Positions 21,162 to 63,709 of a stretch of DNA of 64,000 bases are shown here, piece by piece (the stretch's first letter is position 1; the number at the start of each line of letters is the position of its first letter). Position numbers and translations under genes: made by a program. Origin of the DNA: Octopus vulgaris. Taxonomy: Eukaryota. A model generated the notes under the pieces. That model saw nothing but the letters and a program-made list of their open reading frames with translations, was not told where the DNA came from and made no database searches. The stretch is from assembly GCA_951406725.2 (NCBI GenBank), contig OX597835.1, positions 21,204,001-21,268,000 on the forward strand. The letters run 5' to 3'.

Positions 21162-21230
21162 GTATATATATATATATACATATATATATACATGTATATA
21201 TATATATATATATATTCGCATATATATATA

Positions 21231-21941
21231 ATTTAATTAGAGGATATGTTATCCTCGTGAATGGATGGTTGCATCCAAAGAAACACTGTATTGTTGGGTA
21301 ATGAAAATCCCTTCAAATATCTTCTCAAAAAGTTTAGCAAACGCCAGAATGTATACTAGGAAAACAAATGGAAGAAGACAAAATAAAACAATTAACTTCA
21401 TACCTTAAGATTTCGCTATTAATGATTGCTAACGTAATCATCTGTAGCTCGTCAGTGAAGTCGCTGAGAGATAATTAGTAAACGGAACAAGAAACAAATC
21501 GACTCTACGACAGAGAACTTGCATATAAAGTTCCGCCAATTATGTATCGAAAATATCCAACCAAATGTCTTCATGCTGGCGCTCTAAAACGGAAAGAACT
21601 CTGCAGCTAATAAAGTTCCACAGCGAATCTACCGACTAGAGGACATGGCTATTTAAAAATTAAACAATGAGGGTACAAATTAATATTATTACATAATATT
21701 AATTTAAACCAGTGGGTACCTAGTGCTCGGGTGGTACTATGAATTATATATTACATATATAAATAATATATATATCCACATACAGGTAACTAGCGACGCA
21801 TCAACAAATATCCATGCATTTTACATTCACATATAATTGCACGCATAAATTTATACGTAGAAGCATACTCGTAGATATGAATGCAAACTTAAATACATGA
21901 ATACTTACACATACAGACTGTTAAAGATAATTAGAAATAGG

Positions 21942-21998
<57 letters not shown>

Positions 21999-22785
21999 CA
22001 TGTATCGTTATTCATTGAAGCATACATACACCCAGGAATGTAATATAATTATACATGACACATAAATGACAAGAGATGCATAGACACGTTAATTTTACCG
22101 TTAATGTTTTTTTCATTTTGTAAAGTCACCATTTTATTTTATTACATTTACTGCTCGATCACATGATTAACTAAATATGCGCGTGAATAAACGTCTAACC
22201 CCTTGGGTTTTATACTAAATTATACGATAAGGGGATGTCGTACAATATTCGATGGAATTCTTTCGAATTTGACACTAATCTTTCCAAAAAGTTTTAAATA
22301 TCGTTTACGGTTCATTTTGTCTTTAATAACTTTTTTTTTGTTTTTAACATTGGAAATTTTCCCTTGAAGCTTTGGGATTACCTGTAAATTGAAGAGGAGG
22401 TTGAAGACCCCACCACCCCATAAAGAAAAAGAACAGTATAAAATATAAAATACTCAGACCAAGAAAGAAATACATGAATAAATATATAGTCTTGAACAAA
22501 ATTTCGAAAATTTGGATAAATGTTGAAAATAAAGCAAAGTACAAGTTGGAGTACTTAAGTACATGACAGAAAGATTTTTCTTTGGGGGCGGGGGCTGTAT
22601 TAGTTCATAGGAATTAATATCAGGAGTGCGTAGCCTTCAGCGACGAAAAGAATTATTCACGTTAAAATGATGAGCTCTCTTTAACTTCTACACATCTTAA
22701 ATTATTTAAGTTTTACGATTTTTTAAAAACTCCTAAGGTGTAATGTAGCATTGGAATCGAAATACTATGTCAACCATTTTGTTCT
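21231..22785. repeat. Inverted segmental duplication, left copy (partner 40238-41733)
   Basis: Colinear reverse-complement match with scattered substitutions; the ORF-track peptides at 22344 (-) and 40458 (+) differ by one residue. Confidence 0.93.
21395..21461 (-). ncRNA. Hammerhead ribozyme motif (intact core)
   Basis: Minus strand: ACUUCA-CUGACGA-GCUA...UAGC-GAAA-UCUUAAGG-UA-UGAAGU; 6 bp stem I, extended stem II (AUGAUU/AAUCAU), near-palindromic stem III. Confidence 0.85.
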
Positions 22786-29812: not shown

Positions 29813-30855
29813 CCCAGCTGAAGAAACCTTTATATATCCCTTTCAGTAACACCTGTCTGCAACTTCCACATCAGCGGAAGGCAAGATATTGGTCGGTAGT
29901 TACTTGTAATATTTCATTTCTTTTGCTCTTTCAATATCAGTTCAGTTCAGGAAAAATCACTTGTCTTAATACACTTCAGTCGTGTGTTCATTCAACCATG
30001 AAGCAACATAAGTCGTTTAAGTTCAAATTCCTAGGCCAAATCTGGTCCAGAAGATTTTCAGTTGGATATCCTGTGATCTCTATGTTTCTTCATTGTGACA
30101 AATCTAAGTTATTTATCATTATCTTGTTTTAACCATCCTGCATCACCTTTGGGTTTCACGTCGTTGATCCAAATGCTTCACCAGAATTTCTTCTTTCTTC
30201 CTTCTTATGTGGTATATTCACTGTAACGTTTCCATTTCGTTCCTTGAAAAATGTACTTTGTTGTGTTTCGAACAACACATTATATCAAAACTGTGGAGGC
30301 GCAATGGCCCAGTGGTTAGGGCAGCAGACTCGCAGTCGTAGGATCGCGGTTTCGATTCCCAGACCGGGCGTTGTGAGTGTTTATTGAGCGAAAACACCTA
30401 AAAAGCTCCACGAGGCTCCGGCAGGGATGGTGGTGATCCCTGCTGTACTCTTTCATCACAACTTTCTCTCACTCTTACTTCCTGTTTCTGTTGTACCTGT
30501 ATTTCAAAGGGCCTTGTCACTCTCTGTGTCACGCTGAATATCCCCGAGAACTGCGTTAAGGGTACACGTGTCTGTGGAGTGCTCAGCCACTTACACGTTA
30601 ATTTCACGAGCAGGCTGTTCCGTTGATCGGATCAACCGGCACCCTCGTCGTCGTTACCGACGGAGTGCTTCCCGTGTCAAAACTGTTCAATTCACAGTAT
30701 TAGCATAGCTTGTTGTGTATAAAGGTCCCAACACTGTCATGTCTGTGAAAATAGGCCTTCTTAACCAGAACTGAGCAACCAGAGAAAATATGGTTTATTT
30801 TTTCTTCACCATCACCACGAATTCTGCAGTGACTTACTGTATTCTAACTAATTAT
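29813..30855 (-). pseudogene. Scrambled fragments of R4-like RLE LINE, interrupted by a SINE
   Basis: SNYRPISCLPLMWKLQTGV and KSSGPDL (RT N-terminal region) at 29813-30290; HCRIRGDGEEKINHIFSGCSVL...HRHDSVG (CCHC/RHD) at 30690-30850. Confidence 0.75.
30295..30676 (+). mobile_element. tRNA-derived SINE family A, full length
   Basis: A/B-box-like head (TGGCCCAGTGG, GGTTTCGATTCCC); 10 bp TSD TCAAAACTGT at 30285 and 30677. Confidence 0.92.
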
Positions 30856-30866
30856 GTGTTACTGAT

Positions 30867-32174
30867 GGTTAGGGTTAGGGCTAGTGTTAGGGTTCGGGTT
30901 AGGGTTAGGGTTAGGGTCAAGGTTAGTGTTAGGGGTTAGTGCTAGGGTTAGGGTTAGGGTTAGGTTGGGGTTAGGGTAAGCGTTCATGTTAGGGTTAGCG
31001 TTAGGGTTAGGGTTAGGGATAGGGTTAGGGCTAGGGTTAGGGTTAGGGGGAGAGTTAGTTATAGGGTTAGGGTTAGGGACAGGGTTAGCGTTAGGGTTAC
31101 GGTGAGGGTGAGTGCTAGGGTCATGGTTATGGTAAAGGTTAGGGTTACGGTTAGGGTTAGGATTAGTGTTAGGGCTAGGATTAGGGTTAGGGTAGAGTGA
31201 TAGTGTTAAAGTTAGGGTTAGGGTTACTGCTTGGGTTAGCGTTAGGCTTCGGGTTACGGTTAGGGTGAGGGCTAGGGGTAGGTTTAGGGTTAGGGTTAGG
31301 GTTAGGGTTAGAGCTAGGGTTACGGTTACGGTTAGGGATGGGCTTAGGATTAGGGTAATGGTTAGGGTTAGAGTTAGTGATAGGGTTACAGATAGTGTAA
31401 GGGATAGTGTTTGGTTTATGGTTAGGGTTATTGTCAGGTTTAGGTTTAGCGTTAGGTTTAGGGTTATGGCTAGCATAAGTGTAAGGGTTGGGGTTAGGTT
31501 TAGGGTTAAGGTTAGGGTAAAGGTTAGGGTTATGTTTCGGGATATGGTTAGGGTAGGGGTAAGTGTAAGGGTTAGGGTAATGGTTATGGTTAGGGTTAGG
31601 TTTAGTGTTAGGGTTAGGGTTAATGTAAGGGTAACAGTTAGGTTTAGGGTTAGCGTTGGGATTAGGGTTAATGTGAGTGTTAGGTTAGTGTTAGGAGTAT
31701 GGTTAGGGTTAGTTTTAGTGTTCGGGTTAGGTTTAGGGTTCGGGTTACGTTAGGATAAGAGATAGGGTTATGATTAAGTTTAGAGTTAGGGTTAAGGTAA
31801 GGGTTAGAGTTAGGGTTATGGTTAGTTTTCGGGTTAGGGTTAGGATTAAGGTTAGGGCTAGGTTTAGGTTTAGGGCTAGGGTTAGGGTTAGTGTGAGGAT
31901 TTGTGTTAGGGTTAAGGTTAGGGTTAGGGACGGGGTTCGGGTTTGGTTAGGGCTATGATTAGGGTTAGGGTTAGGGATGGTGTTGGGTTAGAGTTACGAT
32001 TAGTGCTAGCGTTCGCTTTATGGTTAGGGCTAGGGTTAGCGATAGGGTTAGGGTTAGGGCTAGGGTTAAATTTAGAGTTAGGGTTATGGCTACGGCTAGG
32101 GTGAGGGTTAGGATTAGGGTTAGGGTTAGGGTTAGTGTTATGTGAGGGTTCGGGATAGGTTAAGGTACTGGGTA
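30867..32174 (+). repeat. Degenerate (TTAGGG)n telomeric array
   Basis: Hexamer periodicity with many single-base variants. Confidence 0.95.
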
Positions 32175-32178
32175 GAGA

Positions 32179-35022
32179 AAACCCTGACCCTAACCCTAAC
32201 ACTAATCCTAACCCTAATCCTAACACTAACCCTAACCCTAACCCTAAGCCTAACCCTAACCCTAAACCTAACCCTAACACTAACCCTGATCCTAACACCA
32301 AATCCTAACCCTAAACCTAACCCTAAACCTGAACCTGACCCTAACCATAAACCTAACCCTAACCCTAAAACCTTACCTCTAATCCTAATCCTAAACCTAA
32401 ACCTAACACTAACCCTAACCCTAACACTAACCCAAACCCTAACCCTAAACCCTAACACTAACAATAATCACTAATCTTAACCCTAACCCTAACCCCTAAC
32501 CCTAACCCTAACTCTAACCCTAAGCCTAAACCTAACCCTAACCCTAACCCTAGCCCTATCCCTAACCCTAACCCTCAAACCAAACCCTAACCCTAACCCT
32601 AACCCTAATCCTAAACCAAACCCTAACCATAACCCTAACCCGAACCCTGACTCTAACCATAAACCTAACCCTAACCATAACCCTAACCCTAATCCTAAAC
32701 CTGAACCTAACCCTAACCCTAACCCTAACGCTAACACAAACCCTAACCCTAACCCATAACACTAACAATAACCCCTAATCTTAACCCTAACCCTAACCCT
32801 AACCGTAAACCTAACCCTAACACTAATCCTAACCACTAACCCTAACCCTAAACCTAACTCTAACCCTAAAACTAAACCTAACACTAACATTAGCCCTAAC
32901 CCTAACCCTAACCGTAAGCCAAACCCTAACCCTAATCCTAACCCCAACCCTAACCCTAAACCTAACACTAACCCTAACCCTAAACGTAACCCTAACACAA
33001 ATAGTAGACCTAACACTAAACCTAACCTTAACTCTAAAACTAACCCTAAACTAACCCTAACCCTAACCCTAACCTAAACCTAACCCAAACCTACCCCCAA
33101 CCCTAACCCTAAACATAACCCTAACCCCAACCCTTACCCTAACCCTAAACCTAACCCTAAGCTTAACCCTAACCCTAACACTAACATTAACCCTTACCCT
33201 AAATCTAACCCTAACCCGAACCGTAAGTCTAAAACTAATCCTAACCCTAACCCTAAACCTAACATTATCTCTAAAACTAACCCTAACAATACCCTAAACG
33301 AAAACCTAATCCAAATACTAACACTATCCATAACCCTAAACCCTAACACTGACCCTAAACCTAACCCTAGCCTTAACCCTAGACTTAACCCTAAACCAAA
33401 GCCCTAACATTAAACTAACCCTAACGCTAACCCTAACACAAAACCTAAACCTAACCCTAACCCTAATTCAAACCCTAACACTAGCCCTAAAGCTAACCCT
33501 AACCCAAACCCTAACCCTAAACCTAACGCTAACCATAAACCTAACACTGACCCTAGCCCTAACACTAGCCCTAACCCTAACATTAACCATAACCATAACC
33601 CTAACCCTATCCCTAAGCCTAACCCAACCCTAAACCTAAACCTAACACTGACCCTAGCCCTAAAACTAGCCCTAACCCTAACCCCCTAACCCTAACCCAA
33701 ACTCTAATCCTAAACCAAACCCTAACCCTAACCCTAAACCTAAACCTAAAACTAACCCAAACCCTAAACCTAACCCTAACGCTAATAGTAAACCTAACCC
33801 TAAACCTACCCCTACCCCTAACCCTAACCCAAAAACCTAACCCAGACCCTAACCCTAACCCTAACCCTAAACCTAACCCTAAGATTAACCCTAAACCTAA
33901 CCCTAACACTATCCCTAACACTAACCCTAACTCTACCCTAACCGTAACCTTAAACCAAACCCTAACACTAACCCTAACCCTAACCCTAACCCTAACCCTA
34001 AACCAAAACCCTCAAATTAACCTAACCGTAACCCTATCCCTAATCCAAAACCTGACCCTAAACCTAACACTAACCCTAACCCAAACACTAACCCTTACCC
34101 TAACCCTAACCCTAACCCTAACTCTAACCCCTAACCCTAACCCTAACCCTATCCCCTAATCCTAACCCTAACTGTAACCCTAACCCCTAACCCCTAAGCG
34201 TAACGCTAACCCTATCCCTCACCCTAACCCAAACTCTAACCCCTAACCCCTAACCCTTACCCAAACCCTAACCCTAACCCTAACCCTAACCCTAACCCTT
34301 ATCCTAACCCTATCCCTAACCCTAACCTTAATCCTAACCTTAACCCCTAATCCTAACCCTAACCATAACCCAAACCCCTAACCCCTGACCGTAACGCTAA
34401 CCCAATCCCTAACCCTAACCCTAACCCTAACCCCCAATCCTAACCCTAACTAACCCTAACCCTAACCCTAACCCTAACCCTAACCCTAACCCTAACCCTA
34501 AATCCTAACCCCTAACCCTAACCCTAACCCTAACCCTAACCCTAACCCTTATCCTAACCCTATCCCTAACCCTAACCTTAATCCTAACCCTAACCCCTAA
34601 TCCTAACCCTAACCCCTAACCCTAACCCTAACCCTAACCTTAATCCTAACCCTAACCCTAACCCTAACCCTATCCCTAACCCTAACCTTAATCCTAACTC
34701 TAACCCCTAACCCTAACCCTAACCTTAATCCTAACCCTAACCCTTATCCTAACCCTATCCCTAACCCTAACCTTAATCCTAACCCTAACCCCTAATCCTA
34801 ACCCTAACCATAACCCAAACCCCTAACCCTTACCCAAACCCTAACCCTAACCCTAACCCCTAACCCTAACCCTAACCCTAACCCTAACCCTAACCCTAAC
34901 CCTAACCCCTAACCCTAACCCTAACCCCTAACCCCTAACCCTTACCCGAACCTAGCCCAAACCCTAACCCTAACCCTATCCCTAACCCTAACCCTAAATC
35001 TAACCCTAACCCTAACCCTAAC
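32179..35022 (-). repeat. (CCCTAA)n telomeric array, head-to-head with the preceding array
   Basis: Strand switch at about 32175 (..GGTACTGGGTAGAGAAAACCCTGACCC..); purest runs at about 34440-35022. Confidence 0.95.
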
Positions 35023-36548
35023 GAAGGTGAAGCGAAGTGGAACGCCACGAATATATTGAAAACGGAAAAATGGGTGTTTCTACCTAGCTATTGTGGAAAA
35101 AGGGCAGCGAGAATAAGAATCAGTAAAATTTCACCAGAACTGAACATGGAGAGAATTGTAGCGCCAACAATATTTAACTGAGCAGAGAATGTCGGGATAT
35201 TGAAGATAGAAAAGTCGAAAGAAGTAAAGTGGTGGGGTTATGCGGTGCAGGCTTTGGTTCACATAACCATGCCAGACCTGTATAACATCCCAGAGGTGTT
35301 GGTCTTCCCCGACGAGACACTTCTCAGAGTCGTGGTTGAGGGGAGACCCCCAGTGTGCTACAATTGCAAAATTAGAGGCCACATGAAGGATATGTGTCCA
35401 CAAAAAGAAGTACAAGAGAAAACGATTACACTGGAGGCTTTGACAGAGGAGTTACAAAAGACATATGTGGAATAGGAAATCGTGACTACAGATAATGTGG
35501 AAAGTGGTGACGAGTTGGAGAAAGAAAAGGAAAGAACAGAAGAAAAAGAGGATAGAAAGAGAACGCGGGTGGAATCACCACCTAAAGTACAAAAAAAAAA
35601 GAAAAAAAAAACGAAAAGAAGAGTACCGACGAGATGGAGGATCGAACACACGAAGAGGAAGATACAGAAACGAAAGCGAGTGAAGCTTCAAATTGTCAGA
35701 TAACGGAAGAATGGGATAGAAGAGTGGAAGAACAGCTGGAAAAATGTAAGGAAGGAGGAAGACCAAAAGGAAGAAATCTTAAAGCTATAATATTGTACAA
35801 GAAGGACAAGGAAATTGAAAAGTTGGCAAATATGAAAAGTCTAATTAGAGTGAAGTTAAATTCGAAAATTTTTGGTGACCAAGTGAAGGCGGCGATTGTA
35901 GAAAAAGTGACAGTAATGAAACTGAAAAATGCGTATACAGCTGTATGCGTAATGCATTACATCTATATATATAAAACTGTAGTTGTGTGAGTGTCTGTCC
36001 CCTTCGATTTAGATTCCTAACTACTCCCACATTTTGCGATGCAGTTTAACCAAATTCGGGTATCTTATAGTCGTGATTCATATCGAGCCCGTCTGGCTAT
36101 TAGCGCGCGTTTACGATGAATCTACGATTTTAAAAATAATTTAACATCATTTTTTTCTTCCATTTTAATGCATAGTTTTTCGTGTGTCGATGGCGGCGGA
36201 GTTGGCGTCCATGGTCACACCTGCACCTGTTTGCTTCTCCCCTTCTTCCCTCCCTCGTGAAGCTGTGGGGAAGGGAGTGTAAGGAAATCAACGTCGTAAA
36301 GCGTTGTCAAGGAGACCAGCGTTCTTTTAGAACAACGACTTCATGGCTTGAAGACACCAAAACAGAAATGGCTAAGAAAGCCCGAATTGACATCTATAAG
36401 GGAAGTAACTCTCTAAAAATGCTTATATAGTTATTTCCCTTACAAACCCGAGCAACGCCGGGCGATACTGCTAGTTAGGTATAAAAGTTTGCCAAGTATT
36501 ATAGAACAGATGTTACTCACGTACATAACGGATAAACGCCCTGACTAA
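35023..36548 (+). pseudogene. 5'-truncated gag/ORF1-like protein with CCHC zinc knuckle, interrupted by a Helitron
   Basis: VVVEGRPPVCYNCKIRGHMKDMC (CX2CX4HX4C, 35356-35397); frame open from the telomere junction with two stops and one poly-A frameshift; resumes in frame after the Helitron (HY-IRYKSLPSIIEQMLLTYITDKRPD*). Confidence 0.8.
35962..36474 (+). mobile_element. Non-autonomous Helitron (copy 3) with extra internal segment
   Basis: A|TC...hairpin...CTAG|T; removing it restores the host reading frame with no TSD. Confidence 0.9.
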
Positions 36549-38125
36549 CGCAATTGTAAGTGTAAATGAAATTGCGAGTTTGGGGGCTCGTAAGACATTC
36601 CATTTAATTCATTACAAATAATTCATTGTCATACCATACTTTTTGATTTTTTATTATATGTACCCCATGTCCTGTATTGTAATGTCCCCTCTTAATCCGG
36701 GCCATTGTGCCTATAATAAAGAGTTAATCTGCAGCTAGCAGGCCTTTTTGACTTTTTCCTCGTATTACGTCAAACTTTTTTCTGTTGCTGCAAGCCGTTT
36801 TGTGAGTTCGATTCCATTTGTCTTTTTGTTTTGTGTTACACGTGCAAATTTTTGAACGACAACGGGAAACTCAGAGTAACAGGTTTTGTTGAATTTTCTG
36901 CTGCTTTAAATAATGTATATATATGTGGGGGGGGGGGGGGCTGGTAACGATTAATTTGATTGTAATAATTAAATTTTGAGAAATTAGCAATTAATTAATA
37001 GTTAATTTCGATTAAAACAGAAAAATATGTCTGCAGTTGCATTCATTGGCAAGTTTATATTTCAATTACAATTCTGTTAAAAGCAAGAAAAAGCATAACC
37101 ATTTTTCTCCACTCAGATGTTGTTGGATAACCAGTTACGCAAACACACTTGTATGTTACCAGTATATAGTTCAAGTGATGGGCGCTTCTTGTTAGCAATG
37201 TAACCAGAGGAGCTAAATAATCGTTCACACAGAACCGAGGTAGCTGGTATGCACAGAACAGTCTTGGCAAAAAATTGCCAACTTCGGATATCGATGTTCA
37301 TTAAGTTTCCACCATTGTAGTGGATCAATTGATTCAGCAACATTTTTGCCCATTTTCTATCCCTGTACTTCACAAAAAGCGTTTCCGACACCCTCATCTA
37401 AATCTGAGTCAGTTTCCATCAGTTTAATACACTTTTCATTAGGTTAGCATATAGTTTTATTGTGCATTAGTCTTCAACCGATCATCATTAACATCAGCTG
37501 TTATTTGTTGTCTAATTAGTAACCAAGTTCGTTCTTTTGAATCGTCTGATAAACACTTCAAGTTTTTATATTATGGATCAAAAGCTGTTGCAATCTGTAA
37601 TATTTCAATACTTTTCATGTCAGCTAAACGTTTGCTGAAGTCATTAAGAGATGCTGCCTTGAATCTGGCTATATAAGCTGGATTATTATCATTTACAGTC
37701 ATGTGCTTTGTCAAAGACAACAACAGTGGCAATACACAGCTACATTTCACCGTCAAGCAGGGCCATAGCCTGACAAAATAAGTCTAAAACGTTGATGTAT
37801 TTTGAAATTTTTTCTCAATCATAATCGAACAGTTTTGGACTTCTATATTGCTTCTCTTCGTCTGACATGTAGATGGATATTACTTCTCTGGCCTGCAGCA
37901 GACTCTGCAGCATTAGAAAAGACTGTTCCTTCTTATTGGAACATCTTGTAGATTACGAAATGGTAAATCACTACAATTCTGCAATTCAATTATGTGGATA
38001 GGACTATGTTTAAAATGTCCTATGATTTTTCGACATTTGACAAATAATGTTTCTGTTTCTGCGGCTTTAAACCCATGCAATATGCTCAACTGCAGGCTAT
38101 GAGCCAAACACGGAATATGAGCAAT

Positions 38126-38511
38126 GTGGAAGCACTCCGTCGGTTACGACGATGAGGGTTCCGCTTGATCCGAATCAACGGAACAGCCTGCTCGTGAAAT
38201 TAACGTGTAAGTGGCTGAGCACTCCACAGACACGTGCACCCTTAATGTAGTTCTCGCGGATATTCAGGGTGACACAGAGAGTGACAAGGCCGGCCCCTTG
38301 AAATACAGGTACAACAGAAACAGAAAGTAAGAGTGAGAGAAAGTTGTGGTGAAAGAGTACAGCAGGGATCACCACCATCCCCTGCCGGAGTCTCGTGGAG
38401 CTTTAGGTGTTTTCGCTCAATAAACACTCACAACGCCCGGTCTGAGAATCGAAACCGCGATCCTATGACCGCGAGTCCGCTGCCCTAACCACTGGGCCAT
38501 TGCGCCTCCAC
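38126..38511 (-). mobile_element. SINE family A, full length, inserted in the hAT
   Basis: 11 bp TSD ATATGAGCAAT at 38115 and 38512. Confidence 0.92.
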
Positions 38512-39060
38512 ATATGAGCAATACCAGTTTGATTAACAGCTGAAACCAAATTTCGTGCACTGTCTCTTGCTAGAACCTGAATCTTCTTTGTTATATCCCA
38601 GTCTTTTACAAATTGTTTCTATAACTCAGCAACATGAACGTATTCAAAAAGTAACACTTATTAAATTCCAGTCACCAGCAATCCAATGGCCTGTGATTCC
38701 GCAATAAATTGCATTACCTACAGATGCCCAAAAATTAGATGCTAGTGCAATTGCCTTTCAATTTTTCACTGCTTCTTTACCACTTTCTCGTTTGATGCTA
38801 TAAATATCAGCCAACATTTCATCAGCGGTGCGCCGGCAAGGTCGTTTGTATTCGGCATTTTGAAGCCCTGTACTCTACACTTGCTGAAGACCATCATCTT
38901 CTAATATCGATGTTAGTCTGCCGTTATTAGCTATCCAGTTTGCAAGTGATATTTTAATGTCGCGTTGTACAGTAACACTCACCAAACGATCAGACAGACG
39001 ATGAAACTAATTCGAAGTAGTCTGCTTGGAAGTAGATGACACCACCGCTGTCTTTGTAAT

Positions 39061-39248
39061 TGTTTGTCTTGTGATGTCTAATTCTATGTAAAATCGCATG
39101 ATTTTAATAACGATTTCATCTTCAGCTAGCAGGCCTCTGCTACTCTAGACCGATGATGGACAAAGACCCTGAAACATGCGTGTCTCTAAATGCAGGCCTA
39201 GCTGTTGGGGGTATTTGTCTCCCCTTCGTAAATATCAGCCAATGACTA
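39061..39248 (+). mobile_element. ~190 bp insertion carrying a degenerate hammerhead motif
   Basis: Removing it restores the hAT frame (PHLAKLVI-TKTAVV); UCUAGA-CCGAUGA-..-GAAA-CAUGCGUG-UC-UCUAAA with outer pairing CAGCUAG/CUAGCUG. Confidence 0.7.
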
Positions 39249-39859
39249 AATGACTAACTTTGCGAGGTGAGGTTTCGAATACTGTAGCGAGTGTTTATTT
39301 TGAAGGTGGTAAGTAAGCGATGCGCTAGATCCATGGTTCGAGATCGATTTGTCGCAATAGATGTTTATAAAAGTTATCAGCAGTTTTGATATTACTGTCA
39401 GCCAGCAATTTAAATCCAAGATGTTCATGTAATCGACCTGACGTAGGTTTATATTTCATAACTCGATTCTTCTCCGCCGTCGCCATTTTACTGTTGTTAC
39501 TACTGCATCTCGCCTTCCGGCACATTTATTAACGATGGGCAGAAAATTCAATTTGAAACCGAGTAATAGAAATTTAATCGTTGAAATAAATTAACGATTA
39601 ATCGATTAATTAAACTTTGAAAGGCGAGATACAGTAAAGTGCGACCCACACTTATAATTTCTGAGTTTTGACATAGATCTTTATGAGACACTAGTGAGTT
39701 GAATGAATGATTGCTTAAAGTCGCTGTTTCTTGCGTAGCTTCTTCGGCTTTCTGCTCTAACGTGCATACGTTCTATAAAACTATGAATACTGCACTTGTT
39801 TTCCTCTTATCATATCTTTCCTCGTATCTCCTATATTTATATATATATATATATTTAGA

Positions 39860-40237: not shown

Positions 40238-41731
40238 AGAACAAAATGGTTGACATAGTATTTCGATTCCAATGCTACATTACACTTAAAACTTAAATAA
40301 TTTAAGATGTGTAGAAGTTAAAGAGAGCTCATCATTTTAACGTGAATAATTCTTTTCGTCGCTGAAGGCTACGCACTCCTGATATTAATTCCTATGAACT
40401 AATACAGCCCCAGCCCCCAAAGAAAGATCTTTCTGTCATGTACTTAAGTACTCCAACTTGTACTTTGCTTTATTTTCAACATTTATCCAAATTTTCGAAA
40501 TTTTGTTCAAGACTATATATTTATTCATGCATTTATTTCTTGGTCTGAGTATTTTATATTTTATACTGTTCTTTTTCTTTATGGGGTGGTGGGGTCTTCA
40601 ACCTCCTCTTCAATTTACAGGTAATCCCAAAGCTTCAAGGGAAAATTTCCAATGTTAAAAACAAAAAGTTATTAAAGACAAAATGAACCGTGAACGATTT
40701 AAAAAACATTTTGGAAAGATTAGTGTCAAATTCGAAAGAATTCCATCGAATATTGTACGACATCCCCTTATCGTATAATTTACTATAAAACCCAAGGGGT
40801 TAGACGTTTATTCACGCGCATATTTAGTTAATCATGTGATCGAGCAGTAAATGTAATAAAATAAAATGGTGACTTGACAAAATGAAAAAAACATTAACGG
40901 TAACATTAACGTGTCTATGCATCTCTTGTCATTTATGTGTCATGTATAATTATGTTACATTCCTGGGTGTATGTATGCTTCAATGAATAACGATACATGA
41001 ACATATATATATATATATATTTCCTATTTCTAATTATATTTAACAGTCTGTATGTGTAAGTATTCATGTATTTAAGTTTGCATTCATATCTACGAGTATG
41101 CTTCAATGTATAAATGTATGCGTGCAATTATTTGTGAATGTAAAATGCATGGATATTTGCTGATGCGTCGCTAGTTACCTGTATATGGATATATATATTA
41201 TTTATATATGTAATATATAATTCATAGTACCACCCGAGCACTAGGTATCCACTGGTTTAAATTAATATTATGTAATAATATTAATTTGTACCATCATTGT
41301 TTAATCTTTAAATAGCCATGTCTTCTAGTCGGTAGATTCGCTGTGGAACTTTATTAGCTGCAGAGCTCTTTCCGTTTTAGAGCGCCAGCATGAAGACATT
41401 TGGTTGGATATTTTCGATACATAATTGGCGAAACTTTATATGCATGTTCTCTGTCGTAGAGTCGATTTGTTTCTAGTTCCGTTTACTAATTATCTCTCAG
41501 CCACTCCACTGACGAGCTACAGATGATTACGTTAGCAATCATTAATAGCGAAATCTAAAGGTATGAAGTTAATTGTTTTATTTTGTTTTCTTCCATTTGT
41601 TTTCCTAGTATACATTCTGGCGTTTGCTAACATTTTTGAGAACATATTTGAAGGGATTTTCATTACCCAACAATACAGTGTTTCTTTGGATGCAACCATC
41701 CATTCACGAGGATAACATATCCTCTAATTAA

Positions 41732-41733
<2 letters not shown>
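40238..41733. repeat. Inverted segmental duplication, right copy (partner 21231-22785)
   Basis: Reverse-complement match; ~20 bp deletion near 40285 and a shorter (TA)n run. Confidence 0.93.
41503..41569 (+). ncRNA. Hammerhead motif, duplicate of 21395-21461
   Basis: ACUCCA-CUGACGA-GCUA...UAGC-GAAA-UCUAAAGG-UA-UGAAGU; one stem I mismatch. Confidence 0.75.
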
Positions 41734-41764
<31 letters not shown>

Positions 41765-41770
<6 letters not shown>

Positions 41771-62914: not shown

Positions 62915-63709
62915 ATATATGTGTCACGCGTATTCGTCACTGTTTACGTCTGTATCTTTCGCTATACGTACACACCTCTTTGAATTTGTATACGCGATCG
63001 CTACCTCAGTTACATACAGACGGGATTGGCAGAGTAAAGTTATCATAATATCTCTTCCTTCCTTCCTTCCTTCCTTCCTTCAATCTCTTTGATTCTAAAA
63101 GTCTATCTATCTTATTTTCCTTTTATTTTATTTTAGACGTTTAAGATTTACTTTCGTTTCAATTGTGGGCTGAAGTAGTATTTGGTGAGCAGAATAAACT
63201 TGTGTATATATGTGCGTGTCTAGTTTAAGTGTTTAAGATCACACGTACATCGATTACTTGAGAACGCTGTTTCTGGATTAGTTGAATACAAAGATCAACA
63301 TTTCCTTCGTCAGCTCAAGTTTCTTTAGATACATATATATATATATGTATGTATGTATATATGTATGTATGTATTTCTTGTACATTATATGTGTTTGAAC
63401 CAATGTATACCATGTTGGCGTCGCAATGACAAATATTACATTTTATGCCATGATCAGGGAACTTTAATACATGGAGGCTCGGAATATTATAAATAGAAAC
63501 CAATGTAAATATCCATATGTGTGCGTATGCTTCTCCATTTGTATATGTCGCCTGTGTCTGTATATTTGTACACGCACACTCACTTTTATGAATATGCGTA
63601 TGTCTATCTATCTGGTCTCTGTGACCAATGTGGTGTATATATGCTTGCGTCTATCTCTTATATATCTTCGAGTTCCTCTCACTGCGAACACCTCATTTTA
63701 GATTGTCCG

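Follow-up and report, generated by a model that had tools for sequence, protein, structure and literature searches.

Target-specific LINEs are known in the Tx1 clade, where families insert into particular multicopy repeats: Tx1L in Tx1D, Keno in U2, Kibi and Koshi in microsatellites and Tx1-Mar in Mariner-N4 (PMC4494074). These are APE-RT LINEs, they have non-autonomous partners that share their target, and a preference is recognized when more than 20% of flanks lie in one repeat. HAL1, or half-L1, is a non-autonomous LINE derivative that encodes ORF1 only (PMC5753468). Animal non-LTR retrozymes are tandem non-coding repeats with a type I hammerhead and a highly self-paired predicted monomer; target duplications, where they occur, are long (Cervera and de la Pena 2020, PMC7229834, with mussel repeats of ~350–390 bp). 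Hammerheads with a palindromic helix III and a U3-A8 variant also lie in the terminal repeats of Penelope-like elements, which use AT-rich insertion sites and show partial tandems and two preferred 3′ end zones (PMC4209133, PMC11167929, bioRxiv 10.64898/2026.07.22.740005). The components of the octopus locus (LINE, half-LINE and hammerhead retrozyme) are each of a known kind. In combination, they would make hammerhead retrozymes, themselves non-autonomous parasites, a new target class for site-preferring LINEs. Our favored reading of the 64,000-nt Octopus vulgaris stretch analyzed here (the window), which we hold with considerable confidence, is that a chimera of LINE tail and retrozyme was likely patched in by repair, and that the LINE lineage concerned repeatedly inserts upstream of hammerhead cores, likely by virtue of an endonuclease that prefers the site.

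The gene interrupted by the chimera encodes a hAT transposase, lies on the minus strand and is decayed. That disruption, part of the original prediction, is borne out by a Pfam Dimer_Tnp_hAT match in the window, a zf-BED match in a related hAT copy and the existence of uninterrupted copies. The portion downstream of the insert covers 37187..39051 and is itself broken by another repeat at ~38125–38511; the 5′ part, including the BED-finger coding region, covers 39243..39621. The window hAT is ~83–86% identical to other copies, which are 82–88% identical among themselves, and is therefore old. Comparison with 11 uninterrupted copies, nine of them collinear across the insertion site with no indel, places the true arms at 39051 and 39243, not at 39060 and 39252 as first proposed. 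A TGACTAAATGA-like stretch is native in all 11, and TCTTTGTAAT, which precedes the proposed left boundary, is present in none. The apparent doubling of AATGACTA at the right junction proves to be native hAT sequence plus local decay and not a junction feature. Likewise, the reading frame that had seemed to be restored on removal of the insert contains a partly insert-derived TKT, where intact hAT copies read about ASFSQSTAAVSS. The AAT on both sides had been read as a duplication, yet comparison with uninterrupted copies reveals no target duplication and the loss of ~4 bp of hAT at the insertion point.

A search of the 2.8-Gb assembly with the insert gave 1379 first-look candidates, of which 40 were scored and 30 loci fetched, and across these 30 loci the pattern of matches splits at 39117/39118. 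On the plus strand, the left piece (39052..39117) comprises the final 66 nt of a LINE 3′ UTR. We call this element LINE A; the piece is 91–97% identical to the 3′ end of its full-length 5.4-kb copies and closes with a decayed AATAAA-type signal at 39106–39117. The right piece (39118..39235, plus strand) is a 118-nt fragment of a 365-nt retrozyme-type repeat that holds the ribozyme domain and is cut at an internal TA-rich site. Its first 18 nt (39118..39135, plus strand) are the LINE target site within the retrozyme, here the 3′ copy of a target-site duplication; the same sequence stands at both ends of full-length LINE A and of a second element, B. A 7-nt filler (39236..39242, plus strand), templated from native hAT sequence, completes the insert. 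By these matches the insert is a chimera of a LINE A 3′ tail scrap and a hammerhead-type repeat fragment, and no mobile cassette. A free unit with the two ends of the insert was found at none of the 29 other fetched loci: 18 begin in a LINE tail or beyond the upstream flank of the target site (17 of these in an A-type, B-type or partial tail), the remainder start at the target site itself, and every one of the 29 continues past 39235 into further repeat sequence.

The junctions carry microhomologies of 1 nt and 7 nt. Positions 39229–39242 match native hAT sequence at 38801–38814 exactly over 14 nt (7 nt of microhomology and 7 nt templated), for which the chance expectation is 4e-5 within 1 kb and 1e-3 in the window. 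This template lies ~430 bp from the insert within the same hAT, in a region native in six of six hAT copies checked. The lack of a target duplication, the loss of ~4 bp and the filler copied from hAT together suggest break repair, and the insert was likely patched into the dead hAT by a microhomology-driven form of it. Templated insertions by polymerase theta likewise show microhomology and a slight loss of sequence, lack a target duplication and carry a short filler that matches neighboring DNA (PMC7165422); those are local, however, whereas here a main insert of 184 nt is combined with a filler template 430 bp off, and a different template-switching route is possible. A 10-nt microhomology at the left junction was considered and dropped, as that sequence is part of the LINE tail.

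The insert was probably copied in one repair event from a LINE A copy of which the 5′ end is preserved 2.2 kb away. Two A pieces within 2.3 kb, for a family with a few hundred candidates, are improbable by chance (~1e-3, a rough estimate), which makes the nearby origin plausible. The two target copies in the window differ by one base (36731 versus 39122), and this weakens the case for a local source; one-base differences between duplication copies are also present at other loci. Contigs listed under other organism labels revealed no allele of this hAT copy without the insert. Three of those labels hold the repeat and an A tail, with no listed contig spanning their junction with 31 letters on each side. 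The insert itself is debris.

The ribozyme parts lie where the original prediction had placed them. The type I hammerhead-like motif spans 39144..39190 on the plus strand, as judged from alignment and pair counts; our own covariance model scores it at 86 bits, by construction. Helix I pairs 39144–39149 with 39185–39190, the core CCGATGA occupies 39150–39156 with C at position 4, helix II covers 39157–39170, GAAA follows at 39171–39174, helix III (CATGCGTG) at 39175–39182 and TC at 39183–39184, with cleavage predicted after 39184. The U4C change, weak stem II and outer pairing noted earlier are all seen in the window copy. Position 39160 is unpaired in helix II, and relative to close copies there is a private break in helix I at 39189. 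Given these two extra mismatches, the window copy is probably a poor or dead ribozyme; the complete insert is no more stably folded than its shuffled versions (z −1.4). U4C reduces activity in vitro, yet is compatible with viroid infectivity (PMC3088659).

At the level of the superfamily, covariation across families supports the hammerhead layout, with cleavage predicted. In an alignment of 16 natural variants, the core elements GA, A, GAAAC and GU do not vary, 93.8% of cells are paired, and both sides change in every one of the six pairs of helix I and in three of the four in helix II; C3-G8 becomes U3-A8 in 4/16. The covariation score is 0.595, compared with 0.278 shuffled and at most 0.18 slid. 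Compensatory change thus supports the three helices for the superfamily, with the window copy departing at its two mismatches. Outer pairing is weaker (64–71% of cells), and helix III is palindromic in most sister families. The CUGANGA/GAAA core varies among copies: a 46-nt version with the intact core has 27 exact copies in the genome and several sister families have the full core, but a 47-nt C4 version has 64 exact copies, and C at position 4 is the commonest core of the main family. A match to an Rfam hammerhead model, suggested earlier as a check, was found neither for the window region nor for the intact-core version. One sister family member matches Hammerhead_HH9 (E 1e-5) at 35 bits, under the gathering score of 52 bits. 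The genome would hold a strongly covarying superfamily of hammerheads, largely missed by Rfam, whose natural cores include C4, U3-A8 and long helix II variants.

Further hammerhead-like motifs were observed in passing. A fragment of another such family occupies 36857–36925 of the window, right after a broken LINE A 5′ end, with related motifs at L045:553–598 and L091:2337–2382. A second motif in the window, at 63236–63341 on the minus strand, has an intact core and a long helix II (17 bits with our own model, E ~0.002). Loci L183/L202, L300 and L035 (oriented ~2760–2850) carry motifs in which helix II is very long (50–65 nt). One long-helix-II family is struck both by element B and by a LINE family D described below.

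The repeat that carries the motif is non-coding and 365 nt long, and in AT-rich DNA its copies are arranged as partial, permuted tandems, as a trimer or inverted head to head. It is circularly permuted, its end being connected to its start through a 49-nt piece, and predicted cleavage sites in a natural trimer lie 366 and 365 nt apart. The monomer folds well below shuffles (z −8.3 linear, −10.5 circular). Among 50 loci, inversions are present in 19, at least two same-strand predicted cleavage sites in four, and a flanking direct repeat of at least 10 nt in eight, some within simple repeats; a TA or TC run lies within 40 nt of 35 of 92 free 3′ ends. The tandem unit, within the 150–450 bp range and with a type I hammerhead, and its highly self-paired monomer fit non-LTR retrozymes (PMC7229834) and the Penelope-dependent model of their movement (bioRxiv 10.64898/2026.07.22.740005, PMC11167929), by analogy with those systems. 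The earlier view of the motif as part of a retrozyme-like repeat stands. Compared with the repeats of PMC7229834, the octopus repeat, known from genomic DNA alone, is mostly dispersed as 1.2–1.5-mers with frequent head-to-head inversions; its commonest main-family core has C4, others have U3-A8, and it serves LINEs as a landing site. It shares the palindromic helix III, U3-A8 variant, AT-rich sites, partial tandems and two 3′ end zones of the Penelope-like hammerheads, and differs from them in having a helix I of 6 bp and a helix II of 4 bp, the lengths of canonical type I motifs.

A flanking Penelope ORF with RT and GIY-YIG, the other mark of those elements, was not found: none of 79 loci has a Penelope-like element with the repeat unit as its terminal repeat, and the Penelope-type ORF piece near one of them has its own 3′ end. 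Two elements, each beside a retrozyme copy, at a TA repeat and with its own 3′ end, are candidates for a mobilizer acting in trans: a near-complete Neptune-like element at L033:1–3200 (on the minus strand of that locus as stored) and, at L022:2300–3117, a partial one of Penelope type. A MITE with terminal inverted repeats was rejected as an identity for the repeat, since the unit is circularly permuted and tandem. A hint of expression, from contigs of four runs guessed to be RNA that cover the unit, one of which joins the unit's end to its start, was also set aside since genomic permuted copies give the same join.

LINE A is 5.4 kb long, with Pfam matches to Exo_endo_phos, RVT_1 and zf-RVT, and its closest solved structure is human L1 ORF2p (E 1e-41), with R2 at E 1e-22. 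It combines ORF1, an ORF2 with AP endonuclease, RT and C-terminal zinc finger, and a target duplication, as does the L1/Tx1 group; its Tx1-clade placement is by features rather than by a tree of named Tx1 elements, its nearest database homologues being unnamed. Full-length copies have the 18-mer target on both sides and lie inside the repeat. The gag-like element of the original prediction is element B, identified by sequence as an ORF1-only LINE derivative with a CCHC knuckle. In the window it covers 35020..36726 on the plus strand (85–89% identical to a full 1.67-kb copy, L033), is broken at its 5′ end and is interrupted at ~35963–36474. The interruption, which we take to be Helitron-like, has TC near its start and closes with a short hairpin and CTAG. 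Full B copies are 1.6–1.7 kb long and have target duplications. The B ORF1 has a zf-CCHC match and is 28% identical to that of LINE A over 106 aa (E 6e-13); neither A ORF1 nor the N-terminal portion of B ORF1 matched a Pfam family or a solved structure. With ORF1 only, LINE ORF1 homology, a LINE-type 3′ end and target duplications, B is a half-LINE. It resembles HAL1 (PMC5753468) as a non-autonomous derivative encoding ORF1 only, and differs in its invertebrate host, its CCHC-type ORF1, its several families with a common 3′ motif and its strong target bias.

The 18-mer shared by the insert and the gag-like element was indeed found, at 36727..36744 (plus strand). It does not end that element; it is instead one copy of a target-site duplication, preceded by the 3′ end of B and followed by the start of LINE A. 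The first 113 nt of A are present (36745..36857, plus strand; 92% to the 5′ ends of L031 and L037) before that copy breaks off. The B–target–A arrangement recurs at one other locus (L088/L179). The related view of the repeat as a terminal unit of the gag-like element also gives way: B and A are inserted inside the repeat with duplications, and 18 of 20 intact-core copies have no LINE, which makes the repeat the host and not a LINE end. Further ORF1-only LINE derivatives (L277, L282, L286, L279), with 22–32% ORF1 identity to A and B, carry B's terminal motif and also lie upstream of hammerheads.

To quantify the association, tails were sampled by exact pattern in genome order, taking the first 30 of 72 B-type tails (a pattern that also picks up other ORF1-only families) and 30 of 33 A tails. 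A hammerhead was found by covariance model directly downstream of 24/30 B-type and 9/30 A tails, where the model had 16 training sequences, about six of them from the tested loci, and the family labels are our own. The predicted linkage of motif and gag-like element is thereby confirmed at other loci. A strict descriptor found hammerheads downstream of 16/30 B-type and 8/30 A tails, compared with 0/60 on the reverse strand, 1/120 in distant windows and 1/1200 in shuffles. In the best 30 loci from tail-only queries, it matched within 220 nt in 16 (A) and 13 (B), with more recognized by eye. The model-based proportions exceed the 20% of flanks used for Tx1 families (PMC4494074), B-type well above it. 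Among the A tails, 21/30 lack a model match and two of the nine matches are one inverted duplication; by eye, 8/11 of a young A subfamily and 3/19 of an older one are on target. LINE A is only partly hammerhead-specific.

Extending 47 loci upstream, we find 22 insertions in hammerhead repeats with their own 13–20-bp duplication, scored with one mismatch allowed. Before counting, L181 (27 nt, ambiguous), L174 (an inversion), L043 (a tandem B) and matches of 8–11 nt were left out. The 22 duplications match the local family, at least seven divergent hammerhead families serve as targets, and four insertions are strongly 5′-truncated (L035, L180, L182, L278). As read from these junctions, A and B insertions at hammerhead repeats are repeated independent events. 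Three off-target B copies (L289–L291) also have duplications, of 15–18 bp.

A and B insert at a homologous position, with the hammerhead core 21–36 nt past the end of the AATAAAGA signal (61 nt in one family). Even so, the core distance varies within a single family (21 versus 30 nt), and the duplicated sequences have little in common beyond ATC/AGC; a sister LINE family, C, likewise ends at ATC(A). For these reasons a simple sequence-reading endonuclease is not a full explanation. On a tree of 33 B tails (13 of 46 rows, with less than 600 nt in common with B, were excluded), the target label changes nine times, relative to a minimum of seven and a shuffled value of 17.2. B lineages thus appear to follow target families and to switch among them, although kinship alone yields clustering and the tree is no proof of co-evolution.

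Sister families C and D have RT identities to A of 58% and 51–57%. None of their 60 tails is directly followed by a model match, the sole match sitting behind a B-type tail. A hammerhead 85 nt behind one C copy had hinted at wider targeting by that family and was discounted on finding other C loci without one; hammerhead targeting by D was dropped as well, since no D tail is directly followed by a match. About 17 of 30 D tails (L302–L323) are instead fused to an abundant SINE-like repeat, at a single fixed position inside it. Family D would on this pattern be a second target-specific LINE family, with no flanking duplication found within the SINE-like repeat. One genome would then hold sister LINE families that prefer hammerhead repeats, an abundant SINE-like repeat or no particular target, a natural series bearing on how APE-type endonucleases switch target and on whether target co-transcription sharpens specificity.

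These observations are consistent with the following course. The retrozyme repeat would be transcribed, cut as a dimer by its ribozyme with the palindromic helix III, circularized, and re-inserted by Penelope-like proteins acting in trans; the dimer-type layout and the U3-A8 variant are both described in PMC4209133. The A-lineage protein would insert by target-primed reverse transcription and mobilize B in trans, most likely through a loosely selective endonuclease that favors the base of the extended helix I. By analogy, this is most likely the pattern of Tx1L, Keno and Tx1-Mar (PMC4494074): like those families, A is an APE-RT LINE that inserts in a multicopy repeat with a non-autonomous partner sharing the target. 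In contrast to theirs, the target here is a ribozyme-bearing retroelement, hit at a homologous position in many diverged families. LINE lineages would follow related hammerhead families and change from one to another, and their transcription may come from the host repeat. In the window, a single repair event would have copied the insert, probably from the neighboring LINE A copy.

The alternative that survives best, though we regard it as unlikely, is that the LINE borrows the ribozyme: co-transcribed with the retrozyme, its read-through RNA would be trimmed by the hammerhead, and the retained target sequence or RNA structure would guide reinsertion. The constancy of the structural position despite sequence divergence speaks for it, as does a second target-like stretch at the 5′ junction of two B copies (L033, another subfamily, and L287), expected of transcripts that start in host sequence, and co-transcription with the target has been discussed for R2 and SINEU (PMC4494074). 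Template jumps can also yield extra 5′ target copies, however, and the 3′ duplication fits the local target family in every case examined. Among 120 loci from two partly overlapping samples, no tail was seen that carries retrozyme sequence ending at the predicted cut in a foreign flank; the duplications of off-target copies (L289–L291) are equally long; and most host loci have one ribozyme, whereas a palindromic helix III is thought to require a second copy (PMC4209133). A bolder form, to which we give equally little credence, would make the LINE lineage a hyperparasite of self-cleaving circular-RNA retroelements that homes to the helix I base and rides retrozyme transcription, with the ribozyme setting the end of the LINE RNA and target choice partly RNA-guided. 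Tandem hosts would then set both RNA ends, giving a LINE-sized circularizable RNA.

It is still less probable that a few ancestral LINE insertions were amplified as retrozyme cargo by Penelope-like machinery with no repeated targeting. Such amplification would account for the clustering of target families on the B tree and for the inverted, TA-flanked retrozyme-type ends frequent at LINE-bearing loci. It is largely refuted by the distinct 5′ junctions, with different truncation points each having an intact duplication, and is opposed also by the at least seven target families, the two or more LINE families involved, and the nested B-then-A insertions at the same site. Finally, an independently moving, discrete hammerhead cassette of ~190 bp, or a mobile solo terminal unit of the gag-like element, would suit a multi-copy motif linked to that element at many loci, but is highly improbable given the chimeric make-up, repair-type junctions with templated filler and no duplication, the absence of the exact unit from 29 other loci and the 18/20 LINE-free intact-core repeats.

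Repeated, endonuclease-driven insertion thus remains our preferred account, and in the openly accessible literature we found no report of a LINE targeting hammerhead retrozymes. The available portion of the Octopus vulgaris repeat annotation (PMC13282606) gives L1-Tx1 and Penelope families, with hammerhead, ribozyme and retrozyme absent from it. A tree legend in PMC4494074 gives unspecified "satellites" as targets, which might include hammerhead repeats.

Two other features of the window were observed. Copies of a ~1.5-kb repeat at 21198–22715 and 40287–41766 are inverted relative to each other and 95–99% identical, probably a young DNA transposon. Upstream of element B (30750–35020), a degenerate (TTAGGG)n array at ~30.8–32.15 kb abuts a (CCCTAA)n array at 32.19–35.02 kb head to head, a layout that resembles an end-to-end telomere fusion, and B is broken exactly at the array end (~35.02 kb).
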